DNA from: Parcubacteria group bacterium
GTDB lineage: Bacteria; Patescibacteriota; Minisyncoccia; Phycocordibacterales; Phycocordibacteraceae
Assembly: GCA_028286605.1 (NCBI GenBank)
Contig: JAQBRE010000002.1
Span: 399,687 to 463,686, forward strand
Direction: 5' to 3'
DNA: 64,000 bases
The notes under the pieces are model-generated. The model made no database searches, was not told where the DNA came from, and saw only the letters and a program-made list of their open reading frames with translations. A program made the position numbers and the translations under genes. Shown piece by piece: positions 3,729 to 45,346 of this stretch; position 1 is the first letter of the stretch, and each line of letters starts with the position of its first letter.

Positions 3729-6434
3729 ATGCCCCCTTTCAAAAACTTCACCACAAAAGCAAAAGAAGCTATAAAGCGAGCCCACGAGCTCGCTATTGAG
3801 CGTGGGCAGAATCACGTCAGTCCGCTTCACCTTTTAACAGCACTTATCCATCAGGAAGAAAGTCTGGTCTTTTCAGTGCTCGACCGCATGGATATCGATA
3901 CGATGGAACTTTCCGATACGCTGCTCGAATCCCTTGAATCTCCGGACCCCACCTCAGTCCTTTCTCCTTCATTCAACCTGTATCTCACGCCGGAACTCGC
4001 ACAGGCGCTTGAATCGGCAGGGAAGGTCGCTGCACGCATGAATGACTCCTATATAGGAACGGAGCATCTGTTCCTTGCAGTTATTGAGAATCCAGGACCA
4101 GCGGATGATATCCTCACGCGTTTCAAGATAGATGAAGAGACCGTCGAAGCAGTTCTTAAGGAACTCAAGACTTCGAAGGACGGACAGGTTGCCGAACCGA
4201 AGCGGTTCCGCGCGCTTTCCAAATACACGCGCAATCTTACGAAGCTCGCGGCAGACAATGCGCTTGATCCGGTTATCGGCCGTGATCAGGAAATAAATCG
4301 CGTGATTCAGATACTCTCGCGCCGCACGAAGAACAATCCGGTGCTTATCGGCGAAGCAGGCGTGGGTAAGACAGCGATCGCAGAAGGTCTCGCGCTGCGC
4401 CTTTCAACCGGCGAAGTTCCAGAATCCCTGAAGGGCAAGGAACTCCTTTCGCTTGACCTCGGCATGATGATCGCCGGCACGAAGTACCGTGGCGAATTCG
4501 AAGAGCGTATGAAGGCTGTGATGAAGGAAGTAGAGAAGTCCGATGGCAAGGTCATCGTCTTCGTTGATGAGCTGCACACGCTCGTAGGCGCCGGCGCCGC
4601 GGAAGGATCCCTTGATGCGACGAACATGCTTAAGCCGGCGCTCGCACGCGGCGAGATTCGCATGATCGGCGCGACCACGCTTAAGGAATATCAGCAGCAT
4701 ATCGAAAAGGATGCTGCGCTTACGCGCCGCTTCCAGCCGGTATACGTGAATGAACCGAATGAAGAAGACGCTATCGCGATTCTTCGCGGCCTACGCGACA
4801 AGTACGAGCTCTTCCATGGCGTCCGCATCACGGACGGCGCTATCGTTTCCGCTGTGGAGCTTTCTAGTCGTTACATTTCAGACCGTTTCCTTCCAGACAA
4901 AGCTATCGACCTTGTGGACGAAGCCGCTTCCGGCCTTCGCATCGCGCTTGAAAATAAGCCACCGCAGCTTGAAGAGACAGACCGAAAGATCCGCCGCCTT
5001 GAAATCGAACGACAGGCTCTTAAGAAGGATGATGAAACGCTTTCCGAACAGGCTCCGGCGAACACGAAGGAGATTCGCGAGCGCGTGAAGGCTATCGATG
5101 CGGAAATCGCAGATTTCCGCGAGAAGACGGCCGAGCTCGAGCTTAAGTGGAAGAACGAAAAAGAAGTCCTGCAGGACATCCGCGCACTCAAGGCAGAACT
5201 CGATCGCCTGCGTGTCGCTGCTGATAACGCCGAAGCCACTGCAGATCTGGGCACTGCCGCAGAAATCCGCTACGGCCGTATGCCGCACTTGCAGAAGGAA
5301 CTCGAAACAAAGACGAAGCGCCTCAAGACGCTTCAGAAGTCGCGTCGCATCCTGCATGAGGAAGTTACCGAGCATGAAATTGCCGGTGTCGTCTCACGCT
5401 GGACCGGTATCCCGGTTGCAAAGATGATCGAGGAAGAAGCAGCGAAGCTCGCGCGCATGGAACTCGACCTTACGACAGCGGTCATAGGACAGAACGCCGC
5501 GATCAAGATCGTTACGGACGCAGTGAAGCGCTCGCGCGTGGGTATCGCGGACCCGAATCGTCCGATCGGTTCGTTCATGTTCCTTGGCCCGACCGGCGTC
5601 GGAAAGACGGAACTCTCGAAGCGTCTCGCTGAATTCATGTTCAATGATAAGGATGCGCTGGTTCGCGTCGACATGTCTGAATTCATGGAACGCCACTCGG
5701 TCGCTAAGCTCATCGGTGCGCCGCCAGGATATGTGGGCTACGACGAAGCAGGTTCGCTCACCGAACGCATCCGTCATCGCCCGTATTCAGTCGTCCTCTT
5801 CGATGAAATCGAGAAAGCGCATCCTGAAGTATTCAACATCCTTCTGCAGGTTCTCGATTCCGGCCATCTTACCGACGGGAAGGGTCGCAAGGTGAACTTC
5901 AAGAACACCATCATCATCCTTACGTCGAACATCGGCGCGGAATACATGGACCGCATGGCGAACATCGGATTCGGCAGCGCAGAGCACGGCGAAGCCACCG
6001 CGTACGAACAGATGAAGGAGAAGGTCATGGGCTCGCTCAAGGAACAGTTCCGTCCTGAATTCCTGAACCGTCTTGATGACATCATTATCTTCGATCCGCT
6101 TTCCAAGGAAGCGCTCACGGAAATCGTGGAGAGCCAGGTCGTCGAAGTGGTCTCCCGCCTGAACGGCAAGCGCATCACGCTCGCCATTACTCCCGAGGTA
6201 CGTGCATGGCTGGCGGAAAAGGGATACAACCCGCAATACGGCGCTCGTCCGCTTAAGCGCACGATTCAGGACAAGATCCTTACGCCGATCGCGTCGCTTA
6301 TGGTGGGGCAGGGAATCATGGAAGGCGGCACCGTAACGGTATCGCTCAAGAATGGCGAACTGCACTTCGATGTTAAGAAAGGTTTGACGAAGACTCGTCG
6401 TACCAAGGCGCAGGCGGCCGCAACGGCCGCCTAG
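3729..6434 (+). CDS. clpB: ATP-dependent chaperone ClpB
   Basis: 901 aa. Clp_N repeats, two AAA+ modules ([15 protein letters not shown]; [15 protein letters not shown]), a long coiled-coil M-domain between NBD1 and NBD2, and the C-terminal ClpB_D2-small domain. Confidence 0.93.
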
Positions 6435-7701: not shown

Positions 7702-8799
7702 TTACAGACTCGAAATCTGAGACTCAATGAGCTGTATTGCGCTCAGGATGCTTAGGAACTCGGTCTGTATCTGACTCTTCACTGATGAGTTCGTCGTGCT
7801 CGTTACAGGCGTTGCTGTGTTCGTGGTGCCTACTAATGCGTTAAGAGCAGCACGAGTCGTTGGGCCAACATTGCCGAGCTGTGCAATTTTATGCGCTGCC
7901 TGGAATTTGATAACTGCGGCCTTTGTGGCATCTCCGAAGTGGCCGTTTGCTGTTGCGGTCAGGTCACCTTGTGCAATAAGAACCTGCTGAAGGGTCATCA
8001 CCTGTGGATCATTAGACCCAAGGGCAAGATCCGTGGTGAAAGTAGGATCTGCTGCGGTCGTCTGCGTGGCAGTCGTTCCGGTGGTACCCGCTGCGGTCTG
8101 CACAGCGATAACGACTGACGAAGTAGCGATTCTGCCCGCCGTATCAGCAGCAGTAATGTTTATAAGATGCGTGCCCGCATCGTTCGTTTGCGGCGTCCAG
8201 GAAAATACACCATTACTGCTAATGTTCGTATTCGTAATGCTGCTTGCTTCTGAACTATCGAATACGGTGTAGTTCGGTGCGTCAGGAAAACCGGATGCAA
8301 CTGCGCTCACCGTAACGGTTTGACCAGCATTCACTTTTGAAGAAGGGGAAACCCCACTCAAAGAAAGGGAAATAGGAGAGGTCGATACAGGATTGCTACC
8401 GCTGCTTGAAATGCTTGTGCCGCTTGGCGTAACGGTAAGGGTGTAGTTGGCGGTAGCAGCATTGCCGGAACTGTCAGAAACGACTATGGCAAGGGGATGC
8501 GTGCCCACATCGTTCTGTACCGGCGTCCATGCGAACTGACCCAAAGAATCCAGATCGTACCCGCCAAGACTCCCATTGTGATATCCATCACTCAATACGT
8601 ATTTTGGACTATTGAATCCAGTCGCCGTAACGGTAAACGTAACTTTCGTACCTACGGGGATTGAATTGCCAGGAGAAATGGAGTTAATGTTGATAGTGCC
8701 GGTATTCGCATATGCGCCCGTTGCCGTACCAAGCAAAAGCAATAGCCCGCCAGCATATCCGGCAATACGCACAGCATTCATTTGAAATGATTTGTTCAT
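7702..8799 (-). CDS. Secreted protein with two tandem Ig-like repeat domains and a C-terminal peptidoglycan-binding (PG_binding_1-like) domain
   Basis: Signal peptide MNKSFQMNAVRIAGYAGGLLLLLGTATGAYA. The internal ~100-aa repeat (TGFNSPKYVLSDG...AWTPVQNDVGTHPLAIVVSDSSGNAATANYTLTV and SGFPDAPNYTVFDSS...FSWTPQTNDAGTHLINITAADTAGRIATSSVVIAV) occurs twice. The C-terminus LALGSNDPQVMTLQQVLIAQGDL...GHFGDATKAAVIKFQAAHKI...GPTTRAAL matches the PG-binding helical repeat. A canonical RBS ggagga is present. Confidence 0.75.
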   Translation of the reverse strand: MNKSFQMNAVRIAGYAGGLLLLLGTATGAYANTGTININSISPGNSIPVGTKVTFTVTATGFNSPKYVLSDGYHNGSLGGYDLDSLGQFAWTPVQNDVGTHPLAIVVSDSSGNAATANYTLTVTPSGTSISSSGSNPVSTSPISLSLSGVSPSSKVNAGQTVTVSAVASGFPDAPNYTVFDSSEASSITNTNISSNGVFSWTPQTNDAGTHLINITAADTAGRIATSSVVIAVQTAAGTTGTTATQTTAADPTFTTDLALGSNDPQVMTLQQVLIAQGDLTATANGHFGDATKAAVIKFQAAHKIAQLGNVGPTTRAALNALVGTTNTATPVTSTTNSSVKSQIQTEFLSILSAIQLIESQISSL

Positions 8800-9068
8800 A
8801 GAAAATTATTTAGCCTTTCCTCCATTATATCCTACGCAGAAAACGAAGTACGCGTTGCGTATATATTACTAAGTTGATTCAAATATTTTGAATCCGTGGT
8901 GGCGGGCTCTGACGGAAGATTTTAGAACTATTGATTGGGCGAGGGAGTATCCGTTTCCTACGAGTGCACTACGTGAACTACAAAGTATTTTTGTATAAAA
9001 GAAAACCGCCCACAAGTGTGACCCAATGGGTCAGCTTTCCTAGTGGGCAGTCTCGATCTTGTATAAGG

Positions 9069-9542
9069 TCATTCATTCAATATTTGTCGAAGCTTGTTGC
9101 GAGCTTTTGCTATGCGACGATGCACCTCAGAGAGTCCTATGTTCTCCTCAGAAGCAATCTCTGATGGAGATTTACCTTCGACAGCCTTACGAAGTGTTCG
9201 GGCCCAAGCTTGAGGTAACATCTCAATAGCAAACAGTACCTGGTTGAGCTCAGCAGCGAGGGCTTGGTTTGCTTCGATGTGCTTACCAGGGTCTTGTATT
9301 TTGTGCGAGAGAGATATGCGTATGCTCCTTTTCCGTAGCATGTCGTAAAATCGATGACGCATACTGATTCGCAGTGAGGCTCCCATACTTTCCTCTGAGG
9401 CAAAGTCTGCTCGATATTTAAGCGCCTCACACATTACTTCGTGCAGAAGATCCTCAGCATCGTGATGATTACGCGTTACGCCCCAGGCGTATCTGAAGAG
9501 TGGGCCATAATGACCCATGAGTTTTTGCTCAAACGGGTCCAT
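9069..9542 (-). CDS. ECF-type RNA polymerase sigma factor (sigma-70 family, regions 2 and 4)
   Basis: DAEDLLHEVMCEALKY (region 2.x) and SPSEIASEENIGLSEVHRRIAKARNKLRQ (region 4.2 HTH). 157 aa. Confidence 0.75.
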   Translation of the reverse strand: MDPFEQKLMGHYGPLFRYAWGVTRNHHDAEDLLHEVMCEALKYRADFASEESMGASLRISMRHRFYDMLRKRSIRISLSHKIQDPGKHIEANQALAAELNQVLFAIEMLPQAWARTLRKAVEGKSPSEIASEENIGLSEVHRRIAKARNKLRQILNE

Positions 9543-9710
9543 TTGTTACCTTTCAGGCGTTGCTTGGTTCTGAAATAAGTATGCCAAATAAATAAATTGT
9601 GTCAAATAGGCGGGCTTACGGAGTCTGGAATGGAACTCTATTGAAGAGACAATATTGAAATGGAAGAAGCATTCTGAACAACATTGAAACGAAAATGATA
9701 TAATTAGAAA

Positions 9711-10214
9711 ATGAGCCCCGATGTAGAGAAGGTGAATATCGCTTATATAGATGCTGCAAATCTAGACAGAGCCTTGAAAGATTTAAACTGGAAACTAGAT
9801 TACAAGAAATTTAGAGTCTGGCTTTCTGATAAATATAAAATTGAGCGCGCTTATATTTTCATAGGGTTAATTCCTAAATACAAAGATTTATATACTCATT
9901 TCCAAGAATGCGGATTCACGGTCATCTTCAAGGAGGTGGTGTATCAAGGAGGAGGAATTCCTAAAGGGAACTGCGATACAGATTTAATAATGCAGGCAAT
10001 GGCAGATGCCTATGAAGGAAGCCTTCAAAAGGCACTGATCATTTCCAGTGATGGTGATTACGCCCCGTTAGTTAAGAAATTACAGTCGCGAGAGCAATTC
10101 CTAGCAATACTATCTCCTGCTCCGGCTAAGAAATGTTCGATACTTTTGAAACGAACAGACGCACCCATTGCATATATTAACGATCAACGAGGGCTCCTTG
10201 AGGAGATTAAATAA
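9711..10214 (+). CDS. NYN-domain (LabA-like / PIN-like nuclease) protein
   Basis: VNIAYIDAANLDRA...(D)...LIISSDGDYAPLVKKL follows the NYN/LabA pattern (FIDGxNL ... SGDGDF). The surrounding islet is AT-rich (~35% GC). Confidence 0.65.
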   Translation: MSPDVEKVNIAYIDAANLDRALKDLNWKLDYKKFRVWLSDKYKIERAYIFIGLIPKYKDLYTHFQECGFTVIFKEVVYQGGGIPKGNCDTDLIMQAMADAYEGSLQKALIISSDGDYAPLVKKLQSREQFLAILSPAPAKKCSILLKRTDAPIAYINDQRGLLEEIK

Positions 10215-10384
10215 AAAGGCCCCCGATGCGGACGAGCCGCATAAGGGTCCTTTTCGTGGTGATATCTAGAGTATACTCGAACACCATGAGGATTTCAAGA
10301 AGAGGTGTATAACCCCTGATTTCTAAGATGTGTTTCCTGTGGACGAGATTCGACGATTCCTGACGACAAGCATAATATAAATAT

Positions 10385-10918
10385 ATGACCTACGCACAAG
10401 CCGAGGCGAAATTTAAGAGCATAAAGACTGCTATTGGAAAATGGTTGGGGATCAAACGGGTAAAGAAACAAATTCACGATCAGGCAACTAAGGATGCTTT
10501 TGCGAAATCAGACCCTGATACAAAGATGAAGCTTATCGGACCCCAACTCGAAATCTTTACTTCATCGGTGTCTAGAAAGTCAGATCTTCTTCCAACTATT
10601 GCTACTCTCGTTGCGGCTCTAATAGTTGTTACTACCCTAAATCATGACCTTGTACCTCTTCGACCTACTGAAACCAAGGCAATTTTAAGCCTCTTCTTAA
10701 TCCTTATTCCGATTACTCTTAATTACTACATAAAAGTAATGGAGCATACGGCAAGGGGAGCTGTCGACATAATCGATTCTTATCAGGGATTCAGTACGTT
10801 CGAAAAAATGGGACCAGTCTCGTTTCTTCAGAGTTTAAGTTCCGAGTTTCCAATAATAATTGTTTATATAATTTATGGTGTCGTTGGATTAATTATATTC
10901 AGAATCTGGTACGGATAA
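10385..10918 (+). CDS. Hypothetical membrane protein (AT-rich islet)
   Basis: 177-aa ORF with three or more hydrophobic helices (LLPTIATLVAALIVVTTL; AILSLFLILIPITLNYYI; FPIIIVYIIYGVVGLIIFRIW). Its AT-rich composition matches the neighbouring NYN gene. Confidence 0.5.
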   Translation: MTYAQAEAKFKSIKTAIGKWLGIKRVKKQIHDQATKDAFAKSDPDTKMKLIGPQLEIFTSSVSRKSDLLPTIATLVAALIVVTTLNHDLVPLRPTETKAILSLFLILIPITLNYYIKVMEHTARGAVDIIDSYQGFSTFEKMGPVSFLQSLSSEFPIIIVYIIYGVVGLIIFRIWYG

Positions 10919-10924
10919 ATAAAT

Positions 10925-10998
10925 TGGCGGGCCCACGAGGAATCGAACCTCGGCCGACGGTTTTGGAGACCGACGTTCTACCATTAAACTATAGGCCC
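10925..10998 (-). tRNA. tRNA-Trp (anticodon CCA), with CCA encoded
   Basis: The reverse complement GGGCCTATAGTTTAATGGTAGAACGTCGGTCTCCAAAACCGTCGGCCGAGGTTCGATTCCTCGTGGGCCCGCCA folds as a cloverleaf: 7-bp acceptor stem, T-arm CGAGG-TTCGATT-CCTCG, and anticodon loop CTCCAAA. Confidence 0.88.
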
Positions 10999-11079
10999 TA
11001 TAGCGCCACGATAGCAGACGCAGACCCTGTGGGCAAAGGAACTATCCAGCCAGCTATGCCGTACAATGGAGGTATCGTT

Positions 11080-12081
11080 ATGGGCACTCGCGCTACTCTT
11101 ATATCCTCCGGCATCCTCGCGCTCGCTGCGATGCCGCTTTCTGCATTCGCTGCCACGACGAACTTCTTCGGCCCGATCATTCCGCAGGGAGGGAACTGTC
11201 TTTGTGCAACAAGCGCAATGGACTGGGGCTGCGTAATTGCGGTTGTCCAAAACGTACTGAACCTATTGGTCTCGCTTGGCGTTATTGCCGTGGTGTTCTT
11301 CTTTGCCTGGGCAGGATTCACGCTCGTAGCAAGCGGTGGGAGTCCTGCAGCGCTCACGAAGGCGAAGAATCGTATGCTTAATGCCGTACTCGGTCTCGTG
11401 CTTATCCTTGGTGCGTGGACGATTATCGATACGATCATGAAGGTCCTCTACAATCCTTCTGCAGCATTTACTGGCGGCACTTTCGGTCCATGGGAAAGCG
11501 TTCTTAATGCGAATAACGGCGCGTATTGTTTGAAGCCTAATACTTCTCCAGGAATTCTTACGAATGGAAGTATCATTGGGACACTTATTAATGCAGTGAA
11601 TCCCGGCACAGCAAACTCTTCATCGAATCCTGGTAGTTGTAATGTTGCTTCTGGCGGACCATGTACCGTTTCTAATTTGACGCCGGTATTTGGTAGTAAT
11701 GCAAGTCAGGCAGCGCAAATCTGTTCTGCAGAGAGTGGTAATAACCCGCAGAGCACGAGTAAGTCTGATAAAACTTCGGACGGTAATTCTTATTCTGTTG
11801 GTTTGTTCCAAATAAATCTGACAAACTCCTTTAATCAAAGCGTTGATGGACAGAATTGCAGTGCCGCATTCTCAAAGAAATGCCAAGGTAGCGCCGTTGT
11901 GCAATCGGGATCATCAGCAGGTTCATGTAGTGCAACTGTTATAAACCCACAGCTGTATAGTGATTGCGTTGCCGCCGCTCAGAACCCAACCACAAACATG
12001 CAGGCGGCTCAGGCAATCTACAGTCGGAACGGTAATTGGAATCCATGGTCAACCTCTAATACGTGCGGTCTTCATAGTTAG
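11080..12081 (+). CDS. Secreted fusion protein: TrbC/VirB2-like pilin domain, Cys/Ser/Asn-rich linker, and VirB1-like lytic transglycosylase (SLT) domain
   Basis: RBS ggaggt. Signal peptide MGTRATLISSGILALAAMPLSAFA. Two hydrophobic helices separated by a short basic loop (LVSLGVIAVVFFFAWAGFTLVASGG-SPAALTKAKNR-MLNAVLGLVLILGAWTII) match VirB2/TrbC pilin topology. The C-terminus CSAESGNNPQ...DGNSYSVGLFQINLTNS...NPTTNMQAAQAIYSRNGNWNPW matches the VirB1/SLT catalytic signature (ES..NP...GS.D.GLMQIN...Y..G.W..W). The ORF-track start at 10924 would overlap tRNA-Trp and is rejected. Confidence 0.7.
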   Translation: MGTRATLISSGILALAAMPLSAFAATTNFFGPIIPQGGNCLCATSAMDWGCVIAVVQNVLNLLVSLGVIAVVFFFAWAGFTLVASGGSPAALTKAKNRMLNAVLGLVLILGAWTIIDTIMKVLYNPSAAFTGGTFGPWESVLNANNGAYCLKPNTSPGILTNGSIIGTLINAVNPGTANSSSNPGSCNVASGGPCTVSNLTPVFGSNASQAAQICSAESGNNPQSTSKSDKTSDGNSYSVGLFQINLTNSFNQSVDGQNCSAAFSKKCQGSAVVQSGSSAGSCSATVINPQLYSDCVAAAQNPTTNMQAAQAIYSRNGNWNPWSTSNTCGLHS

Positions 12082-12098
12082 CGATATATACTATTTAT

Positions 12099-12614
12099 AT
12101 GAAAAAACTTGGAATAATCATTGCAGTTTTCATTGTGATCTTGATCGTGCTTGGGGTATTTGCATTTGTCTTGAGCAATATGAATAAGGGAATCGTGAAT
12201 CAAGCTCCAAATCCTTTCGCGAGCACTACCTCTGGTAATATTTCTCCATCACAGACTCCGCTTCCACTCACGCTTACTGACGGAAGCAGTCTTTCAGTCC
12301 CAGATTTTACTAAGCAGAATCAGCCATCAGTTGCTGGGCCCGATACTGGGTATCAGGCTGCAGGTAGCTCGGCGGGTGATTATCAGATTCTCTATTTCCC
12401 GCAGGGATCATATTTTCTTATCAGTCTTCTTAACGAGCCAATCGGTGCTACTCGGCTAGCTGCTCAGGGCGCACTCGAAAGCAAGCTCGGTCTTACTGAT
12501 GCTCAAATGTGCAAGCTTAATATCGAAGTGCGCACCACCATTGCGGTGAACGACACTTTCGGTGGTAAGAATCTTGGAATTAGCTTCTGCCCCGGAGCTA
12601 CGAAGCTTCCGTAG
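12099..12614 (+). CDS. Membrane-anchored hypothetical protein
   Basis: N-terminal TM helix (LGIIIAVFIVILIVLGVFAFVL) followed by a Ser/Thr/Pro-rich linker and a globular C-terminus. It overlaps the miaA 3' end by 17 nt in convergent orientation. Confidence 0.5.
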   Translation: MKKLGIIIAVFIVILIVLGVFAFVLSNMNKGIVNQAPNPFASTTSGNISPSQTPLPLTLTDGSSLSVPDFTKQNQPSVAGPDTGYQAAGSSAGDYQILYFPQGSYFLISLLNEPIGATRLAAQGALESKLGLTDAQMCKLNIEVRTTIAVNDTFGGKNLGISFCPGATKLP

Positions 12615-13446
12615 GGTTTTCGAGACTGGCGAGTTTACGGAGCCACTTCTTCTGTTCGCGCGCATAGTGCCAGAGCTTTACGGATAGGGAACCGAGGAGC
12701 GATTCTTCGGTGCGTTCGTCGCGGAGGTATTCGCCAACAATTCGGTATTCAAGGCCGAGCTCATTCAGACGTGCGTCGCCGACACGTTCGCGGGTCTGGC
12801 GTACCTCCTCGATGAGGCCGTTCTGGAGCGCCTGCAGCAGGCGCTCTTCGATGCGCGGCCGCAATTCCTCCTTTGGTGGGTCTATCACCACCCACTGCAC
12901 ATTGTAGAGCGCCTCACGTTGTACACGTTCCGGCACCGCGCCGCGCAGGGTGATAATCTCAAGCGCACGAACGAGCCTGCGACGGTTGTTCGAATCCAGC
13001 ATGCCAGCACGACGCGGATCTTTAGCGAGGACCTGCGCAAATAGTTCCTGCGTTGAAAGCTTCTCGAGTTCGATGCGCAGTGCCGGGTCACTCGGAATTT
13101 CCGGCAAACCATATATCAGTGCATCGAAATAGAAATGAGTACCGCCGGCAAGGACGGGCACCTTGCCGCGTGCGTGCAAATCAGCGATGAGTTTTTTGGC
13201 ATCGACGACGAAGTCGCCGGCACTGTACGCATCTTCCGGTTCACGGATATCGATCAGATGATGCAGGATGCCCTGCATCTCTTCTTTCGAGATCTTTTCC
13301 GTCCCGATATCGAGCGTGCGATACACCTGACGTGAATCTACCGATATGACCTCGCCATCATACTCTTGGGCAAGCGCGATAGCTTTGGCGGACTTGCCGC
13401 TGGCCGTAGGGCCGATGACGGCAATAATAGGTTGAAGAGGCTCCAT
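12598..13446 (-). CDS. miaA: tRNA dimethylallyltransferase
   Basis: IAVIGPTASGKS P-loop, DSRQVYRTLDIGTEKIS and LAGGTHFY motifs. 282 aa. Confidence 0.88.
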   Translation of the reverse strand: MEPLQPIIAVIGPTASGKSAKAIALAQEYDGEVISVDSRQVYRTLDIGTEKISKEEMQGILHHLIDIREPEDAYSAGDFVVDAKKLIADLHARGKVPVLAGGTHFYFDALIYGLPEIPSDPALRIELEKLSTQELFAQVLAKDPRRAGMLDSNNRRRLVRALEIITLRGAVPERVQREALYNVQWVVIDPPKEELRPRIEERLLQALQNGLIEEVRQTRERVGDARLNELGLEYRIVGEYLRDERTEESLLGSLSVKLWHYAREQKKWLRKLASLENPTEAS

Positions 13447-20977: not shown

Positions 20978-21859
20978 TTATATACGGTGCCAGGTACCGA
21001 ATCGTTCTGTTATAAAACCCTGTAATTCTAAGGCGCTTAGGGCTGAAAGCACTTCGTGCGTTCGCATATTTGCGCGACGAATCAAATCGTCGCGCGAACA
21101 CGGCTCTGCAAGCAGTTCGTACAGGATTCGTTCGGTCTCTGAAAGAAGCGGGAGCGCGTGCTGCGCAATATCTTCAGGTGTTTCCGGAATGGCGATACCG
21201 AGCGCTTCTAGTATGTGCGCCGGCTCGCTCACGAGCATTGCGCCGAGGCGCAGGAACTGATGCGAGCCGGCACTGTGCACTCCTTTAATAGGATGCGGCA
21301 CGCACAGCAAATCCCGATTATAATCTGCAGCCAATCGTGCGGTTATGAGCGTTCCGGATTTCTCACCCGCCTCAATCATAAGCACCGCCTGCGATATCCC
21401 GACCATAATTCGATTACGCGAAGGGAAATCATACTGCCGCGCAGCGTGGTCTGGCGGATGTTCTGAAAGCAGCGCGCCGCCCGCATCCAGAATCTTCTGT
21501 GCGAGGTCTCTATTCGATCGCGGATACAGGACGTGATCACCTAAGCCGGAACCAGGAATCGCGACCGTGTGCAATCCGTTAGCGAGCGCTGCACGATGCG
21601 CACAGGCGTCGGCGCCGAGGGCTAAACCAGAAACGATAGAGATGTTGTAGCCCGATAATCCTGCAATCAAGTATTCGCATGATTCACGCCCGTACCGAGT
21701 GAGTGCCCGTGAACCTACGACCGCAAGCAGCTTCGTTTCAGGAGAAGGCAATGTGCCCCGCAGCCATAGCTTTTTCGGTGGCTGCGGTATTTCCAGCAGT
21801 TGGGGTGGCAATGAATCTGATTCAATGGTGGTGATTTCCATGCCACTAAGTATGCACAT
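20978..21859 (-). CDS. dprA: DNA processing protein DprA (Smf)
   Basis: Rossmann-like DprA core: AVVGSRALTRYGRE...SGLALGADACAHRAALANG...TVAIPGSGL...GTLITARLAADYNRDL. The start could alternatively be 21841. Confidence 0.85.
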   Translation of the reverse strand: MCILSGMEITTIESDSLPPQLLEIPQPPKKLWLRGTLPSPETKLLAVVGSRALTRYGRESCEYLIAGLSGYNISIVSGLALGADACAHRAALANGLHTVAIPGSGLGDHVLYPRSNRDLAQKILDAGGALLSEHPPDHAARQYDFPSRNRIMVGISQAVLMIEAGEKSGTLITARLAADYNRDLLCVPHPIKGVHSAGSHQFLRLGAMLVSEPAHILEALGIAIPETPEDIAQHALPLLSETERILYELLAEPCSRDDLIRRANMRTHEVLSALSALELQGFITERFGTWHRI

Positions 21860-36037: not shown

Positions 36038-36547
36038 ATGGACCAAAACGAAGCAAAAGCCTACTTTTTGAGCATTTATGACAAGCATGCGGACGAGATA
36101 TTCCGCTTCTGCTTCATGAAGGTGTCAAATAAGGAAAAGGCGGAAGATCTGACCCAGGAGGCATTCATGCGCTACTGGCAGTCGCTCCGTACCGGTGAAC
36201 CGGTCCGCAACGACCGTGCCTTCCTCTATACCTTGGCTCGCAACCTTGTTATCGATTGGTACCGTAAGAAGAAGGAATCATCACTCGATGTCATACAGGA
36301 AGCAGGTATCGATTTCGCCGGCGAAGGCCGTGCAGACGTCGAGCAGGCGGCGCAGATGAATGAAGTGATGGCAGTCGTGAATCAGCTCGATGAACCTTCG
36401 CGCGATGTCATCCTTTTGCGCTTCGTAGAAGGATGGTCTCCGCAGCAGATTGCGGAACTGAATCATGAATCTGCGAATGCTGTTTCCGTGCGTCTCAACC
36501 GTGCTATCAAGAAAGTGCAAGAACTCATCCATGCAACTCAACCCTAA
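36038..36547 (+). CDS. ECF-type RNA polymerase sigma factor
   Basis: Region 2 (EDLTQEAFMRYWQS...LYTLARNLVIDWYRKKK) and region 4 (ILLRFVEGWSPQQIAELNHESANAVSVRLNRAIKKV). Confidence 0.8.
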   Translation: MDQNEAKAYFLSIYDKHADEIFRFCFMKVSNKEKAEDLTQEAFMRYWQSLRTGEPVRNDRAFLYTLARNLVIDWYRKKKESSLDVIQEAGIDFAGEGRADVEQAAQMNEVMAVVNQLDEPSRDVILLRFVEGWSPQQIAELNHESANAVSVRLNRAIKKVQELIHATQP

Positions 36548-37574
36548 AACAACAGAAGAACTTAAAATGCTACGGGCAGTGATGCTTGATGAGCGTACTA
36601 AGACGCGTCTGCGGGATGAGCTCAACGCATACGTCGATCTGCACGCTGTGAGCGGACCGCTTCCGGTACGCGTCGCCGTACGCAGCCCCTTTTCATATAT
36701 GTTCTCACGTGCCGGCGCGAGCGTGCTTGCCTTTGCCGTACTGCTTTTGGTTGGCGGAACCGGCGTCAGCTACGCCGCAGAAGGAACGGTACCCGGTAAT
36801 ACGCTGTATCCGGTGAAGGTTGCAGTGATTGAACCCATACAGGGAGCGCTTATAACGACGGCAAAAGGTCAGGCAGCGTGGCATGCGAATCTCGCGAGCC
36901 GTCGCCTGGACGAAGCGACGACACTTGCCGTTGCGAACAAGCTAGACCCAGCCACGCAAGAATATCTGCAGACAAAATTTAATACAGAAGTTGATGCGTC
37001 TAACGCAGATGCGAATGCACTCGCCGCAACAGGTAATGACAGTGCGGCGCTTGATGTACGTTCGGATCTTGAGGCACGCATTACGGCGCATGCAGAGATT
37101 CTTGCGGTGATCACTAATCATATGGATGCGACGGCAAGTTCGACTGCGTCAACGACGTTTGAAAGCACAAAGACGCTGCTCGCAGCGGTGCAGGAACGTC
37201 GTCATCAGGTTACGGAAGCACGTCTTGCGCTTGAGGATTCGACACTCGCAAGCACGACGGTAAGGGTAGCAGTAGCATCGCCGGTAGCAGATTCAGCATC
37301 TACGACCGTCGCGGTCGCGACATTCGCACCGCATCCGATGCGTGCGGCAAAGATCCGCATGCCGGCTAGTGTTCTTGTTGAGCCGACAACCGCCACGCTC
37401 GCCGTTCAGGCAGAGAATGATGCGCAGGACGCTGCACGTACTTCGGAAGTGGCTTCCATACTATTGCAGCACGCAGCTTTGCTGCGTGCCTATGGACCTA
37501 TCGCAACCACCAGTACCTCGACTATGGCGACCACCACGGTGGTAGCCTCCACTACGATAGAAATTCAGAAATAA
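36531..37574 (+). CDS. Putative anti-sigma factor: single-pass membrane protein with a DUF5667-like domain and an Ala/Thr-rich tail
   Basis: Overlaps the sigma gene by 17 nt. TM ASVLAFAVLLLVGGTGVSYAA followed by GNTLYPVKVAVIEPIQGAL...AAWHANLASRRLDEA. The ORF-track start at 36465 is rejected. Confidence 0.55.
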   Translation: MQLNPKTTEELKMLRAVMLDERTKTRLRDELNAYVDLHAVSGPLPVRVAVRSPFSYMFSRAGASVLAFAVLLLVGGTGVSYAAEGTVPGNTLYPVKVAVIEPIQGALITTAKGQAAWHANLASRRLDEATTLAVANKLDPATQEYLQTKFNTEVDASNADANALAATGNDSAALDVRSDLEARITAHAEILAVITNHMDATASSTASTTFESTKTLLAAVQERRHQVTEARLALEDSTLASTTVRVAVASPVADSASTTVAVATFAPHPMRAAKIRMPASVLVEPTTATLAVQAENDAQDAARTSEVASILLQHAALLRAYGPIATTSTSTMATTTVVASTTIEIQK

Positions 37575-41438: not shown

Positions 41439-42470
41439 ATGACTGTTGATGAAACGGACTTCGCTGTCCAGCTCGAGACTGCGCTTGAAACTCAGAACAA
41501 GCTCGTTGCGCTTATCGGCACTTATCTTAAACCTATCGGAACAGGCAAGGTTCGGTACCTTTTCGATCTCCCACAGCATCCTGACCTTATGGCTGTCTTC
41601 GTAAGTGACAACTGGAGCGCCCGCGATTTCGTCTTCGGCTTCGTTATTCCTGAAAAGGGTAAGTATCTGAACATTGCGACTATCGCGATGAAGCGCTATC
41701 TCCGCAACAAGGAAATCGAAACCGATTTAGTCGCATACGCGCGCTACATCGACGAATATCTTCCGCCCGGGCTCCGGGGTAACCGCGAACTCTGGAACAG
41801 GATGACGATCGTACGTAAGTGCGAAATGATTCCGGTAGAGGTCGTTCTGCGCAACAATCTTTTCGGGAGCGCCTGGAAGGATTACAACAACCCCAAGCTG
41901 GGTCGCGTAGTGTGCGGTCAGTTGCTTAGCGAAGGACTACCTCTTTTCGCTGAGCTTTCACCACCTTTCCAGTCGCCAACGACAAAGGCGAAGACGGGTC
42001 ACGATCTGGCCATGACCAAGCAGGCTGTTGACGAAGAATATCCTGGACTTCTTTCCGAGGGTGTTTATATTCTCGAGTCTCTCAACGAGATTCTTGAAGA
42101 AGATTCACTTGGACGATGTATCGATATCAAGTTCGAGCTTGGGCGAAATCCAGTTACAGGGATATATGTGCTCTGTGACGAAATAAGCCCTGATTCGAGC
42201 AGGCTTTGCCGACTCTCTGACTATCTCGCTCTAGAAAAAGGTGAGGTTCCTGAATTCCTTGATAAGGAATTCGGCCGCGCCTGGGCTGACGCGCTAGGTA
42301 TCGACAAACTCGATCCCGCTTCCGAAACGGACAAGGAACTGGTCCGTTCTTGGAGGCCAGACGAACAGTTCGTTCAAGAGTTCATGCGGCGGTATGCGGT
42401 GGCATTCTGGATTCTGTCGCGCGGACATACGTTGAACGAATATCGAAACTCGATGATGGCGATGAGCTAA
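41439..42470 (+). CDS. SAICAR synthetase (PurC)-family protein; orphan, long form
   Basis: GTGKVRYLFDL, IPVEVVLRNNLFGSAWKDY and CIDIKFELGRNPVTGIYVLCDEISPDSSRLCRL align with the PurC motifs GKAK.VY, VP[VL]E.VVR.Y..GS and VD.KLEFG...GEI.L.DE.SPD.SR.W. No other pur genes are nearby. Confidence 0.7.
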   Translation: MTVDETDFAVQLETALETQNKLVALIGTYLKPIGTGKVRYLFDLPQHPDLMAVFVSDNWSARDFVFGFVIPEKGKYLNIATIAMKRYLRNKEIETDLVAYARYIDEYLPPGLRGNRELWNRMTIVRKCEMIPVEVVLRNNLFGSAWKDYNNPKLGRVVCGQLLSEGLPLFAELSPPFQSPTTKAKTGHDLAMTKQAVDEEYPGLLSEGVYILESLNEILEEDSLGRCIDIKFELGRNPVTGIYVLCDEISPDSSRLCRLSDYLALEKGEVPEFLDKEFGRAWADALGIDKLDPASETDKELVRSWRPDEQFVQEFMRRYAVAFWILSRGHTLNEYRNSMMAMS

Positions 42471-42497
42471 CGATTCTTCAAGGAATTTCTATGACTG

Positions 42498-42531
42498 CAA
42501 GGGCGCGCCGGATGGCGCGCCCTTTTTCTTA
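42498..42531 (+). terminator. Rho-independent terminator after the purC-like gene
   Basis: gggcgcgcc-ggat-ggcgcgccc + tttttctt. Confidence 0.7.
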
Positions 42532-42580
42532 TCCTCCCGTGTACGTATGTATATGCGCATCATCCTTTATACTGAACGTA

Positions 42581-45343
42581 ATGGCACTTGAAGGACCAGC
42601 GCGACCGATAACGTCGCCGGAAGAAGAACTCGCGTACCTGCGTGCGCAGGTACAGGCGAAAGAGCTTGAGCTTTCGGAGTTGCGCGTGGAAAAGCCGCGC
42701 GAGACGGTCGCGCACGAGCGCATCGTGGATCATCGCAGCACGGAAGCTGCGCAGGTACTCGATCCACGCTATCAGATACAGCCGGCAGAGGCAGAAAGCC
42801 TTGCGCTTAACCTTGAACCGCAGAGTGATGACGAAACGATGCAGGAGCTTCGCCGCATTATCGAGACGAAGGGTATCCATAATGCGTTCAGCGTGCTGGA
42901 AAAGCTCAAGAATCCGCACCTTGAGGATGATTTCCACCGATTCCTCGTGCAGTATCTGATTGCGGGTATGCCGATACAAGGCATGAACGAGAAGCAGCCT
43001 GAATGGAAGGGTCTGCACATGACGCTGTATGAGATCTCGCTTCCGGAAGCGAATACTGATGAAGAATCTCGCCGTAAAACGTTGAAAGAGCTTATCTCTT
43101 CGATGGAGCAGTTCTATTCCGGCATGCTCGGCACAGAACATGCCACGACGGGCGAGCCTGCGCACTTCACCCTTGAGCTCGCGGTGCCAGTGAACAAGGC
43201 GCACCTGATGTTCTATGCAGCGATACCGAATTCGAAATGCGACTTGTTCGAGAAGCAGTTGCTCGCCATATTCCCGAATGCGCATATCGCACCGCAGCCG
43301 AACGATTACAACGTCTTCGTTGATGGCGGCGAATCGTTCGGTTCCGTTGCTGCGCTTGGTCGCCCGGCGATGCTCGCGCTCAAGGATTACGGTGATTTCG
43401 ATTATGACCCTATCAACTCGATACTGAATGCCTTCGCGAAGATTGCGCCAGAGAATGAAGGTGCTTCATTTCAGATTACGATCGCGCCGCAAGGGGAGCG
43501 TTTCGTGAAGCACTATCGCAAGGTATTGAATGCGCTTCGCACCGGGCAGGAACGACAGAAGGCATTCAATCTTCCTGAAACCGCATTTGGTGAAGTGGCA
43601 CGTGATATCACGAGCACATTGTTCGGTGGCAGTTCAAGTAAGACGAAGGAGGACGAAGAGAAAGAACGCGCACGCCAGACCGAAGCGAATAAATCTGATA
43701 TCGAGCACGTAGAGCGAAAGCTCGCATCACAGATAGTCGCGACCAATATGCGTCTTGTGGTTTCTTCCAAGGACCCAGGCCGTGCAGAACAGATACTTGG
43801 CGAGCTTGAGTCTGCATTCCATCAGTTCGAGAATCCGACCGGCAACCGTATAGAGTGGCGGCATGTATCGCGCGGCACGCTGCGAACTCTTTTCCATGAC
43901 TTCACCTTCCGTACGTTCGAGAAGGCGACTGAAGTCGCACTTTCTCTCCGTGAACTCACAGCGATATTCCACTTCCCGCCGAACGGCATCGCCTCTTCGC
44001 CGCACCTCAAGCAGTCGAGGTTCACTGCAGCGGCAGCTCCTTTGGAGCTGCCGCACGACGGCATCCAGCTCGGCACCAACGAGTTCCGGGGTCAAAAGAC
44101 TGATGTATTTCTTTCACCTGAAGACCGTCTTCGTCACCTGTATGTGATCGGGCAGACCGGTACCGGTAAGACATCGTTCATGAAAACTCTGATTGATCAG
44201 GATATCAAAGCAGGTAATGGGGTCTGCTTCATCGACCCGCACGGTAACGACATCCTTGATGTGCTGGCAAGCGTTCCTCCGGAACGCTATGAAGACGTCA
44301 TCTACTTCGATCCGGCATACATAGATCGACCATTCGGTCTCAATCTTCTTGAATACGATCCCGCATTCCCTGAACAGAAGACGTTCATCGTGAACGAGCT
44401 GCTCGCTATATTCCGTCGCTTGTATGGCGATGTGCCTGAATCGATGGGTCCTGCCTTCGAGCAGTACTTCCGTAACGCAACATTGCTCGTGATGGAAGAT
44501 CCAGAATCCGGTTCAACGCTTATGGACATCGGCCGCGTGCTTTCGAACAAAGCATTCCGAGACCTGAAGCTTTCTAAGAGCAACAACCCAATCGTGAATC
44601 AGTTCTGGAATGAGATAGCAACGCAGGCAGACGGCGAAGCGTCACTTGCGAACATCGTCCCATATATCACGAACAAGTTCGATGATTTTACTTCGAACGA
44701 TTTCATGCGTCCTATCATTGGTCAGCAGGAATCATCCTTCAAATTCCGCGACATCATGGATAAGCGAAAGATCCTGCTCGTTAATCTTTCGAAAGGACGA
44801 CTCGGTGAACGTAATGCGAACCTGCTCGGGCTCATTATGGTGGGCAAGATATTCATGGCAGCGCTCTCACGTGCAGATGATCCGCGTGGCGTCTTCCCGC
44901 CGTTCTACCTCTATATAGACGAGTTCCAGAACATAACGACCGACTCCATTCCGAGCATCCTTTCAGAGGCTCGTAAATACAAGCTATCTCTTACGATCGC
45001 GCACCAGTTCCTTGCGCAGGTCGATGAGAAGATCCGTGACGCAGTCTTCGGCAACGTCGGCTCCATGAGCGTGTTCCGTGTTGGGCAGGAAGACGGCGAA
45101 GTGTTCGCGAAACAATTCGCACCGACATTCAGCGCGCCCGATTTCATCAACATCGAGAATTACAACGCATACGTGCGTATGCTCGCGCATGGCGTGCCGC
45201 AGAAGCCCTTCAACATTCAGACGCTTCCGCCGCCGCAAGGAAATCCGAATCAGATCGATGACTTGCGCGAACTTTCATACCTCACCTACGGTCGTGACCG
45301 TGCTACAGTTGAAGCATCTATCAGAGCGAGATATCTTTCGTAA
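42581..45343 (+). CDS. Large ATPase of the FtsK/HerA/VirB4/VirD4 (T4SS) superfamily with a ~480-aa N-terminal domain of unknown function
   Basis: C-terminal half: HLYVIGQTGTGKTSFMKTLI (Walker A), CFIDPHGND, ILLVNLSKG, YLYIDEFQN (Walker B) and ARKYKLSLTIAHQFLAQV (the R-K-x-G-x-L-x-TQ arginine-finger box typical of TraD/TrwB/VirB4/HerA). The N-terminal half has no TM helix and no recognisable motif. The ORF-track start at 42350 lies inside purC and is rejected. Confidence 0.75.
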   Translation: MALEGPARPITSPEEELAYLRAQVQAKELELSELRVEKPRETVAHERIVDHRSTEAAQVLDPRYQIQPAEAESLALNLEPQSDDETMQELRRIIETKGIHNAFSVLEKLKNPHLEDDFHRFLVQYLIAGMPIQGMNEKQPEWKGLHMTLYEISLPEANTDEESRRKTLKELISSMEQFYSGMLGTEHATTGEPAHFTLELAVPVNKAHLMFYAAIPNSKCDLFEKQLLAIFPNAHIAPQPNDYNVFVDGGESFGSVAALGRPAMLALKDYGDFDYDPINSILNAFAKIAPENEGASFQITIAPQGERFVKHYRKVLNALRTGQERQKAFNLPETAFGEVARDITSTLFGGSSSKTKEDEEKERARQTEANKSDIEHVERKLASQIVATNMRLVVSSKDPGRAEQILGELESAFHQFENPTGNRIEWRHVSRGTLRTLFHDFTFRTFEKATEVALSLRELTAIFHFPPNGIASSPHLKQSRFTAAAAPLELPHDGIQLGTNEFRGQKTDVFLSPEDRLRHLYVIGQTGTGKTSFMKTLIDQDIKAGNGVCFIDPHGNDILDVLASVPPERYEDVIYFDPAYIDRPFGLNLLEYDPAFPEQKTFIVNELLAIFRRLYGDVPESMGPAFEQYFRNATLLVMEDPESGSTLMDIGRVLSNKAFRDLKLSKSNNPIVNQFWNEIATQADGEASLANIVPYITNKFDDFTSNDFMRPIIGQQESSFKFRDIMDKRKILLVNLSKGRLGERNANLLGLIMVGKIFMAALSRADDPRGVFPPFYLYIDEFQNITTDSIPSILSEARKYKLSLTIAHQFLAQVDEKIRDAVFGNVGSMSVFRVGQEDGEVFAKQFAPTFSAPDFINIENYNAYVRMLAHGVPQKPFNIQTLPPPQGNPNQIDDLRELSYLTYGRDRATVEASIRARYLS

Positions 45344-45346
45344 CTT

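Follow-up and report, generated by a model that had tools for sequence, protein, structure and literature searches.

A VirB2-like pilin module fused to a lysozyme-like domain in a widespread Patescibacterial protein family, with a possible link to type IV secretion

Patescibacteria need a type IV secretion system (T4SS) and VirB2-like pilins, the latter encoded in arrays, for epibiotic growth (PMC10633639, PMC12857230), and how a monoderm machine of this kind crosses the cell wall is the question on which the locus described here bears. In the T4SS clusters of these bacteria, the pilin arrays are essential, and lysozyme or peptidase genes adjoin virB4 (PMC12102498, PMC10633639); the majority of VirB2-bearing Patescibacteria are without a recognisable VirB1 (PMC12102498). 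In a stretch of 64,000 nucleotides from a Parcubacteria group bacterium (the window), a preliminary description made from the letters alone had picked out one open reading frame that seemed to join a TrbC/VirB2-type pilin to a VirB1-like lytic transglycosylase. What are the two halves of this protein, how widely are they found together, and does the protein belong to a T4SS?

The gene was defined by the following features.

11080..12081, plus strand: coding sequence of the pilin-lysozyme fusion, 333 aa plus stop, the same as GenBank JWM39_499 apart from the start
11069..11073, plus strand: Shine-Dalgarno-like GGAGG, six bases 5' of the ATG at 11080 (sequence read)

The reading frame proved real and its coordinates correct, since the ATG at 11080, the stop codon ending at 12081 and the GGAGG could all be read (from the sequence and the list of open reading frames). 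The GenBank record, from a 532-kb contig of a metagenome-assembled Parcubacteria group bacterium, has its start at 11056, eight codons 5' of 11080, and gives a 341-aa protein (P0001, 100% identity); because GGAGG sits six bases before 11080, we favoured 11080 as the start. A promoter and terminator scan of positions 10800 to 12800 gave none exceeding the shuffled expectation. We found 96 homologues of the fusion protein, the majority of them full-length, and the fusion alignment used below comprised 44 homologues (36-62% identity to the query). With two Pfam cut-offs passed and 96 mostly full-length homologues, the predicted two-module architecture is far above chance.

We looked at the N-terminal half, which consists of two features.

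11080..11154, plus strand: signal peptide, aa 1-25, with a predicted SPase I site AFA/A (hydropathy scan)
11155..11544, plus strand: complete VirB2-like pilin module, aa 26-155 (PF18895, AlphaFold, layout of stand-alone pilins)

The pilin module runs in the order FFGPIIP motif, Cys40/42/51, TM1 (aa 49-87), loop (aa 88-97), TM2 (aa 98-124) and a tail of the form VLYNP..FGPW..C150, and in the signal-peptide region P19 and A24 are almost invariant across the 44 homologues. The hydropathy scan showed two hydrophobic helices (approximately aa 49-87 and 98-124) joined by the basic loop SGGSPAALTKAKNR, and AlphaFold, run on the 44-sequence alignment, placed helices at 49-84 and 89-124 (pLDDT of about 85). 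The layout of the PF18895 family, namely a cleavable signal peptide, two TM helices and a short basic loop, is thus found by both approaches, and the VirB2/TrbC topology first read from the sequence held up. The Pfam searches separated two models, of which T4SS_pilin (PF18895) passed its cut-off (35.7 bits versus 26.6, aa 55-118) and did so in 44 of 44 aligned relatives, whereas TrbC (PF04956), the model named beforehand, stayed sub-threshold (17.9 bits versus 27.9) and was matched by 9 of the 44 relatives (E < 0.01). For further comparison we took real VirB2/TrbC and VirB1 proteins from the Ti, Ri and other plasmids. An hhalign comparison with six plasmid VirB2/TrbC proteins gave a weak match of 61 in-register columns (P value = 0.012), and NCBIfam NF045849, a Mycoplasma ICE pilin-like family, matched the fusion protein below threshold.

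A profile of the N-terminal module retrieved 147 proteins, mainly stand-alone Patescibacterial pilins of 120-160 aa and some from Saccharibacteria. The pilin module of the fusion is homologous to these stand-alone pilins (E values down to 1e-30), several of which also carry TrbC PF04956. They have in common a signal peptide, the sequence IPFFGPIIP and a Cys ahead of TM1, then the hairpin and finally a VLYNP..W..C tail. Because the stand-alone pilins share every motif, the window protein holds a pilin in full, from aa 26 to around 155, and not a mere hairpin; with PF18895 in all 44 relatives, this sustains the assignment of the first half to the VirB2/TrbC type. No solved pilin was found when the PDB was searched by sequence with the pilin-module profile. 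The described Patescibacterial VirB2-like pilins (arrays of Southlakia epibionticum and Nanosynbacter lyticus; PMC10633639, PMC12102498) have the same signal peptide, FFGPIIP-type N-terminus, hairpin with basic loop and VLYNP..W..C tail. Relatives of the fusion are encoded within such tandem arrays and beside VirB4. In contrast to the described pilins (about 100-160 aa), the fusion adds a 180-aa C-terminal extension with an enzyme-like domain, and the window gene stands outside any array and away from VirB4. Moreover, because of the AXA site and the positive-inside basic loop, the two ends of the hairpin, like the lysozyme-like domain, are predicted to be extracytoplasmic.

The remainder of the protein comprises a linker and a second domain.

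11545..11637, plus strand: low-complexity G/N/S/P/T-rich linker, aa 156-186 (composition)
11638..12078, plus strand: lysozyme-like (SLT_3) predicted catalytic domain, aa 187-333
11731..11736, plus strand: codons GAG-AGT for Glu218-Ser219, predicted catalytic acid and partner Ser, invariant in 44 homologues

The linker is variable in length and sequence across the alignment of 44, and AlphaFold confidence falls to a pLDDT of 45-57 across blocks of aa 131-180, which indicates a disordered stretch. The linker had been called Cys-rich, with about 10 Cys, a description that turned out to be inaccurate: there are 12 Cys (40, 42, 51, 150, 187, 195, 215, 260, 268, 283, 296 and 329), dispersed over the entire protein: three precede TM1, about three follow TM2 ahead of the second domain, and six or seven lie in the lysozyme-like domain itself.

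The C-terminal domain had been assigned to VirB1/SLT on the strength of the motifs AESGNNP, SYSVGLFQIN and AIYSRNGNWNPW. All three were found as quoted, and the alignment for the catalytic Glu showed Glu218-Ser219 to be invariant in the 44 homologues and to align to Glu35-Ser36 of human lysozyme C. Gly241, Trp323, Cys195 and Cys329 were likewise invariant, and Leu242, Gln244, Ile245 and four more Cys were at least 90% conserved. However, membership of VirB1/SLT was not supported. SLT PF01464 stayed below its cut-off (16.4 bits versus 21.3, over model positions 12-46 only) and was matched by 10 of the 44 relatives (best E value = 3e-7). In an hhalign comparison with three VirB1/lytic transglycosylase proteins carried by Ti, Ri and Sinorhizobium plasmids, the aligned part was confined to 17 columns around the GLxQIN motif (P value = 0.018). 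The related model SLT_3 PF18896 passed instead (31.7 bits versus 27, aa 207-325) and matched 28 of the 44 relatives.

Structure prediction supported the lytic reading of this half. The full-length AlphaFold model was confident over the C-terminal domain. Modelled alone, the C-terminal domain reached a pLDDT of 90, and Foldseek assigned it a lysozyme fold with weak agreement, the closest solved fold being c-type lysozyme. The modelled fold is lysozyme-like and alpha-helical, superposable on Slt70, MltE or MltC, and it likewise agrees with the GH22 fold; a Foldseek search of the PDB with the full-length model returned helical-hairpin matches only, which are meaningless. The top PDB matches by sequence were lysozymes C, which aligned over ESGGN...G(L/I)FQIN at a nonsignificant E value of about 0.1. 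With c-type lysozymes and alpha-lactalbumin (GH22) the domain shares the ES..G(I/L)FQIN and W..W..C patterns and many disulfide-capable Cys; it differs from them in being bacterial and fused to a membrane module, and in that the position of GH22 Asp52/53 is Ser239 in the query and Ser or Ala in relatives. Because of Ser239, the two-carboxylate mechanism of GH22 is ruled out, and GH22 membership was rejected, with the Glu present and its Asp partner absent. Single-Glu chemistry is usual for family-1 lytic transglycosylases. Taken together, profile matches, alignment and model place the predicted domain within the lysozyme superfamily, between GH22 and GH23, with VirB1 family membership not demonstrable; it would be a single-Glu domain that cleaves the wall.

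We next considered how widely the two modules occur and occur together. At E ≤ 1e-3 the profile of the C-terminal domain matched 1,458 clusters (50% identity), a number that fell to 973 at E ≤ 1e-10, and in nearly all of the best 150 matches listed the domain lay at the C-terminus or a few residues from it. Both modules were present in 182 of the 229 collected proteins; the other 47 were fragments, proteins of 450-1,190 aa without another Pfam domain, and pilin modules with other C-termini, including VanY. A scan of species-representative genomes seeded with the single fusion protein gave no relatives; seeded with a 10-sequence alignment, the scan gave 132, nearly all from metagenome-assembled genomes labelled Patescibacteria or plausibly mislabelled. 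The search of related genomes thus recovered a relative in 132 species-level genomes, and the neighbourhood was compared in 77 loci. The single polypeptide had been called unusual. Measured against the classical T4SS it is, yet within Patescibacteria this architecture is frequent. Pfam has a model for each half, and NCBI gives some members of the family the name "pilin", so the architecture was already implicit in databases. A literature search found no paper on a pilin-lysozyme fusion in CPR, on the SLT_3/PF18896 family or on the partner protein described below.

The surroundings of the gene in the window include the following.

3729..6434: clpB
10925..10998, minus strand: tRNA-Trp (CCA), conserved upstream neighbour of the fusion gene
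12099..12614, plus strand: partner gene, 171 aa, N-terminal signal-anchor helix and an extracytoplasmic domain of about 110 aa (ortholog alignment)
42350..45343: VirD4/TraD-like ATPase, the sole T4SS-type gene in the window, 30 kb from the fusion gene

The gene order is clpB, a variable AT-rich stretch, tRNA-Trp, the fusion gene, the partner gene, miaA (minus strand), peroxiredoxin, parB, relA/spoT and topA, and the same housekeeping order was found in the four relatives examined. Variation was confined to the stretch 5' of the tRNA. All four relatives have an extra pilin fusion, with a C-terminal domain that is unassigned or VanY, and the window is without one; this gene lies in the partner-miaA interval in three relatives and 5' of the fusion gene in L005. 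In L004 and P0071, this sister gene joins its pilin module to VanY, a D,D-carboxypeptidase domain.

A position beside tRNA-Trp and an AT-rich islet had been pointed out for the gene. The position was correct; the hint of an island that came with it was not, as tRNA-Trp stands immediately 5' of the ortholog in three of the four relatives (L001, L002 and L005) and the clpB...miaA block is conserved. A mobile island made up of tRNA-Trp and the AT-rich 9-11 kb was rejected, the tRNA adjacency and the flanks being kept among relatives. Rather than a one-off fusion or island cargo, the gene in the window is an ordinary member of a large, so far undescribed Patescibacterial family and was inherited vertically.

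The membrane-anchored reading frame noted after the fusion gene is indeed there, starting after 17 bases from the fusion stop. Its ectodomain has two invariant Cys in the ortholog alignment and is predicted to share a compartment with the lysozyme domain. A homologue of the partner was present in 64 of the 77 related loci, nearly always directly downstream of the lysozyme-domain gene, whatever the N-terminus of that gene. The partner protein had no Pfam, NCBIfam or PDB match, a PDB search with a partner profile gave nothing credible, and phmmer and hmmsearch found no second partner gene within the 64-kb window.

We then assessed the link with T4SS across the 77 related loci. The clpB-miaA context was found in approximately 34 of them. 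In 15, a VirB4-like ATPase lay 1-3 kb upstream. The order in L034 is PrgI, x, VirB4, x, pilin-SLT_3 and partner, and that in L049 is VirB4, a long SLT_3 protein and partner. In at least 9 of the 77, the pair was embedded among genes for short pilins, three to six in tandem, and in both array loci tested the pilin array lay beside gyrA. Searches of the 64-kb window with phmmer and hmmsearch found no VirB4, PrgI, other pilins or paralogues of either domain. The pilin-array or virB4/prgI setting is therefore absent for the window gene and present for relatives (L034, L046, L048, L067 and the array loci). The T4SS link suggested at the outset thus holds at the level of the family, with PrgI or VirB4 adjoining in other lineages, and is not visible in this window.

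These results point to a tethered wall-opening component, analogous to VirB1, of a Patescibacterial type IV apparatus, positioned by its pilin module; we give this reading a probability of roughly 55%. In this Parcubacteria/Paceibacteria-type (CPR) bacterium, the fusion would be exported by Sec, its signal peptide cut and its N-terminal VirB2-like pilin inserted in the membrane, with the ends of the pilin module outside, two long helices through the membrane and the short basic loop in the cytoplasm. The flexible linker of about 30 aa would hold the disulfide-rich lysozyme-superfamily domain at the outer face of the membrane, where Glu218 of the invariant Glu-Ser, with GLFQIN after it, would be the single catalytic residue cutting the glycan strands of peptidoglycan, presumably those of the cell's own wall; the activity and its product are alike predicted ones. 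The enzyme would open the wall for the T4SS or its pilus, a task equivalent to that of VirB1 or of the membrane-anchored hydrolases in Gram-positive T4SS, and we propose that it is kept at the assembly site because it is covalently joined to the pilin module, which may dock at the T4SS or enter it. The partner encoded at 12099-12614, probably co-transcribed, would work alongside the enzyme, its ectodomain lying in the same compartment. A VirB1-analogous role fits the published lack of a recognisable VirB1 in most VirB2-bearing Patescibacteria (PMC12102498).

The known enzymes closest to this proposed role share parts of it. With VirB1 and the other lytic transglycosylases of T4SS and T3SS (GH23 family 1, PF01464; Agrobacterium tumefaciens VirB1, EtgA), the fusion has in common the Glu-Ser and GL(M/F)Q(I)N motifs and the presumed task of making way through the wall for a machine that spans the envelope; those enzymes are soluble or lipid-anchored, whereas the lysozyme-like domain here is joined to a pilin. 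TraG of pIP501 and PrgK of pCF10, as they are cited in PMC12102498, are like the fusion in being monoderm proteins with an N-terminal anchor followed by a glycan-cleaving domain (a predicted one in our case), and like them some relatives of the fusion are encoded in VirB4 clusters. TraG and PrgK have a single TM helix, whereas the anchor of the fusion is a pilin-type hairpin after a cleaved signal peptide, and the fusion is without their CHAP or LytM, a peptidase, if present, being on a separate pilin fusion (VanY).

Against a role in T4SS, this lineage keeps the pair in a block of housekeeping genes (clpB ... miaA, prx, parB, relA, topA), the 64-kb window contains no VirB4, PrgI or other pilin, and the direct profile comparisons with VirB2 and VirB1 gave weak matches. 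The protein could be a housekeeping autolysin for which the pilin-derived hairpin is a mere membrane anchor and which, with the pilin-VanY fusions, remodels the cell's own peptidoglycan in growth and division independently of any T4SS. The clpB-miaA position, conserved in those approximately 34 of 77 loci without T4SS genes in reach, the pilin-VanY sister genes of L004 and P0071 and the lack of VirB4 in the 64-kb window all favour such a role, and the sister fusions, whether with VanY or another domain, suit general wall remodelling equally with T4SS assembly. However, the module retains all the conserved features of stand-alone pilins in addition to the hydrophobic helices; furthermore, other lineages have this fusion and its partner within pilin arrays or beside PrgI/VirB4. 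We consider a T4SS-independent autolysin unlikely on balance, though a serious contender.

The location of the pair within variable pilin arrays, and the tight linkage of an anchored partner in 64 of 77 loci, a typical effector-immunity layout, would also suit an enzyme-armed pilus subunit or effector. Here the pilin module would polymerise into a T4SS pilus or cap it, the lysozyme domain, displayed on the filament, would digest the wall of the host bacterium to which the epibiont is attached, and the partner would be an immunity protein or inhibitor; the requirement of T4SS and pilin arrays for epibiotic growth (PMC10633639, PMC12857230) accords with this. The fit is poorer on two points: an appendage of 180 aa per subunit is hard to accommodate in known conjugative pili, whose subunits pack tightly in a helix, and the partner is without similarity to known lysozyme inhibitors. 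VirB2-type pilins have both termini outward, as in the structures of the F and T pilus, so that a C-terminal extension would lie at the filament surface. We regard an armed pilus as doubtful.

P-type pilins undergo C-terminal processing, as RP4 TrbC and VirB2 do, and a polyprotein precursor might likewise be cleaved after the pilin module into a mature pilin and a free, soluble lysozyme. The pilin part of the fusion and the stand-alone pilins have exactly the same end point, the ..W..C tail, after which the fusion continues into a disordered linker; against this, the linker differs among homologues in both length and sequence, and no conserved cleavage motif or TraF-like protease gene was found in the loci examined, which leaves this reading improbable. 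That the lysozyme fold is inactive and serves for glycan binding only, as Ser239 in place of the Asp of c-type lysozymes and the sub-threshold SLT model might suggest, is very improbable given that Glu218-Ser219 is invariant in 44 sequences of 36-62% identity, that GLxQIN is strongly conserved and that single-Glu chemistry is normal in family-1 lytic transglycosylases.

Beyond a tethered VirB1-like component, a bolder version of these ideas, which we hold to be possible but a long shot, is that the pilin module truly enters a T4SS-type filament. A pilus bearing lysozyme domains on its surface or tip would then be a wall drill toward the host cytoplasm, and the linked 171-aa protein would be a new lysozyme immunity or chaperone protein. 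If true, a conjugative-type pilin would for the first time be found to double as an enzyme carrier, and such a pilus would explain the lack of a recognisable VirB1 in most Patescibacterial T4SS. For the missing step of wall opening in these bacteria, the widespread pilin-lysozyme-like fusion offers a concrete candidate, and it may also serve as an enzyme carried to the surface of the host.

For the pilin-lysozyme fusion gene, the start codon annotated in GenBank, which gives a protein of 341 aa, probably lies eight codons upstream of the true one. The DNA coding for the additional N-terminal residues MPYNGGIV (11056-11079) includes GGAGG, which serves the ATG at 11080 as its ribosome-binding site, and most homologues begin at the Met equivalent to that ATG. 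Downstream, the fusion gene is followed by two genes that converge:

12099-12614, +, partner, a 171-aa signal-anchored protein with two invariant Cys
12598-13446, -, miaA

The partner open reading frame (ORF) and the 3' end of miaA overlap by 17 bases (12598-12614). The partner family had no match in Pfam, NCBIfam or PDB, and the partner proteins of the window and of related loci L012 to L088 form their own undescribed family. A partner was present in 64 of the 77 related loci, directly after the SLT_3-domain gene in nearly all 64, among them loci where the lysozyme domain belongs to proteins of 650 to 1,100 aa adjoining VirB4.

Between the partner and miaA, three of the four relatives checked carry a second pilin fusion (about 303 to 340 aa), which in locus L004 carries VanY; in L005, the second pilin lies upstream instead. 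This gene has apparently gone from the window by loss. Across related loci L036, L044, L050, L056, L060, L063, L069, L072 and L086, a cassette recurs in the order short pilin, pilin-SLT_3, partner and three short pilins, and at the two loci tested (L036 and L050) it lies directly 3' of gyrA and a gene for a solute-binding protein. PMC12102498 mentions "VirB2 arrays interrupted by a non-pilin gene", a description that the cassette fits, with the interrupting genes here identified.

The stretch upstream of tRNA-Trp (about 9000-10920) is AT-rich (GC 0.42 versus about 0.53) and contains three genes:

9069-9542, -, sigma-70-like gene
9711-10214, NYN-domain gene
10385-10918, multi-TM ORF

The gene content of the interval from clpB/L33 to tRNA-Trp differs in every relative, and the interval therefore looks like a variable hot-spot. 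Other genes of the window were as follows:

7702-8799, -, apparently secreted protein that combines Ig-like/CshA-type repeats with a PG_binding_1 domain
20978-21859, -, DprA gene
36038-37574, ECF-type sigma factor and adjoining DUF5667 protein
within 42350-47740, +, VirD4/TraD-like coupling-ATPase gene (DUF87 and TraG-D_C)
within 42350-47740, +, after the VirD4/TraD-like gene, charged, Pro/Ala-rich 797-aa ORF

The first, which lies 2.3 kb from the fusion gene, adds a second protein associated with peptidoglycan and is not conserved at the relatives' loci. The sigma factor/DUF5667 pair and DprA are ordinary, but in a CPR genome they are of relevance to signalling at the envelope and to the uptake of DNA. 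For the VirD4/TraD-like gene, the TTG that is listed probably lies upstream of the true start; neither VirB4 nor a relaxase was seen in the vicinity of 42350-47740, and the 797-aa ORF was without a family match.

Among the complete stand-alone relatives (P0230 to P0349), 33 of 47 have a Cys before TM1 and another about 25 to 30 residues after TM2. The fusion gene encodes counterparts of both:

11197-11232, +, Cys40, Cys42 and Cys51, the three Cys that precede TM1
11527-11529, +, Cys150, counterpart of the post-TM2 Cys

A candidate disulfide would join a Cys before TM1 to Cys150 and so staple the hairpin together at both of its outer ends. P-type pilins undergo head-to-tail cyclisation, which the staple, if the disulfide forms, would mimic.
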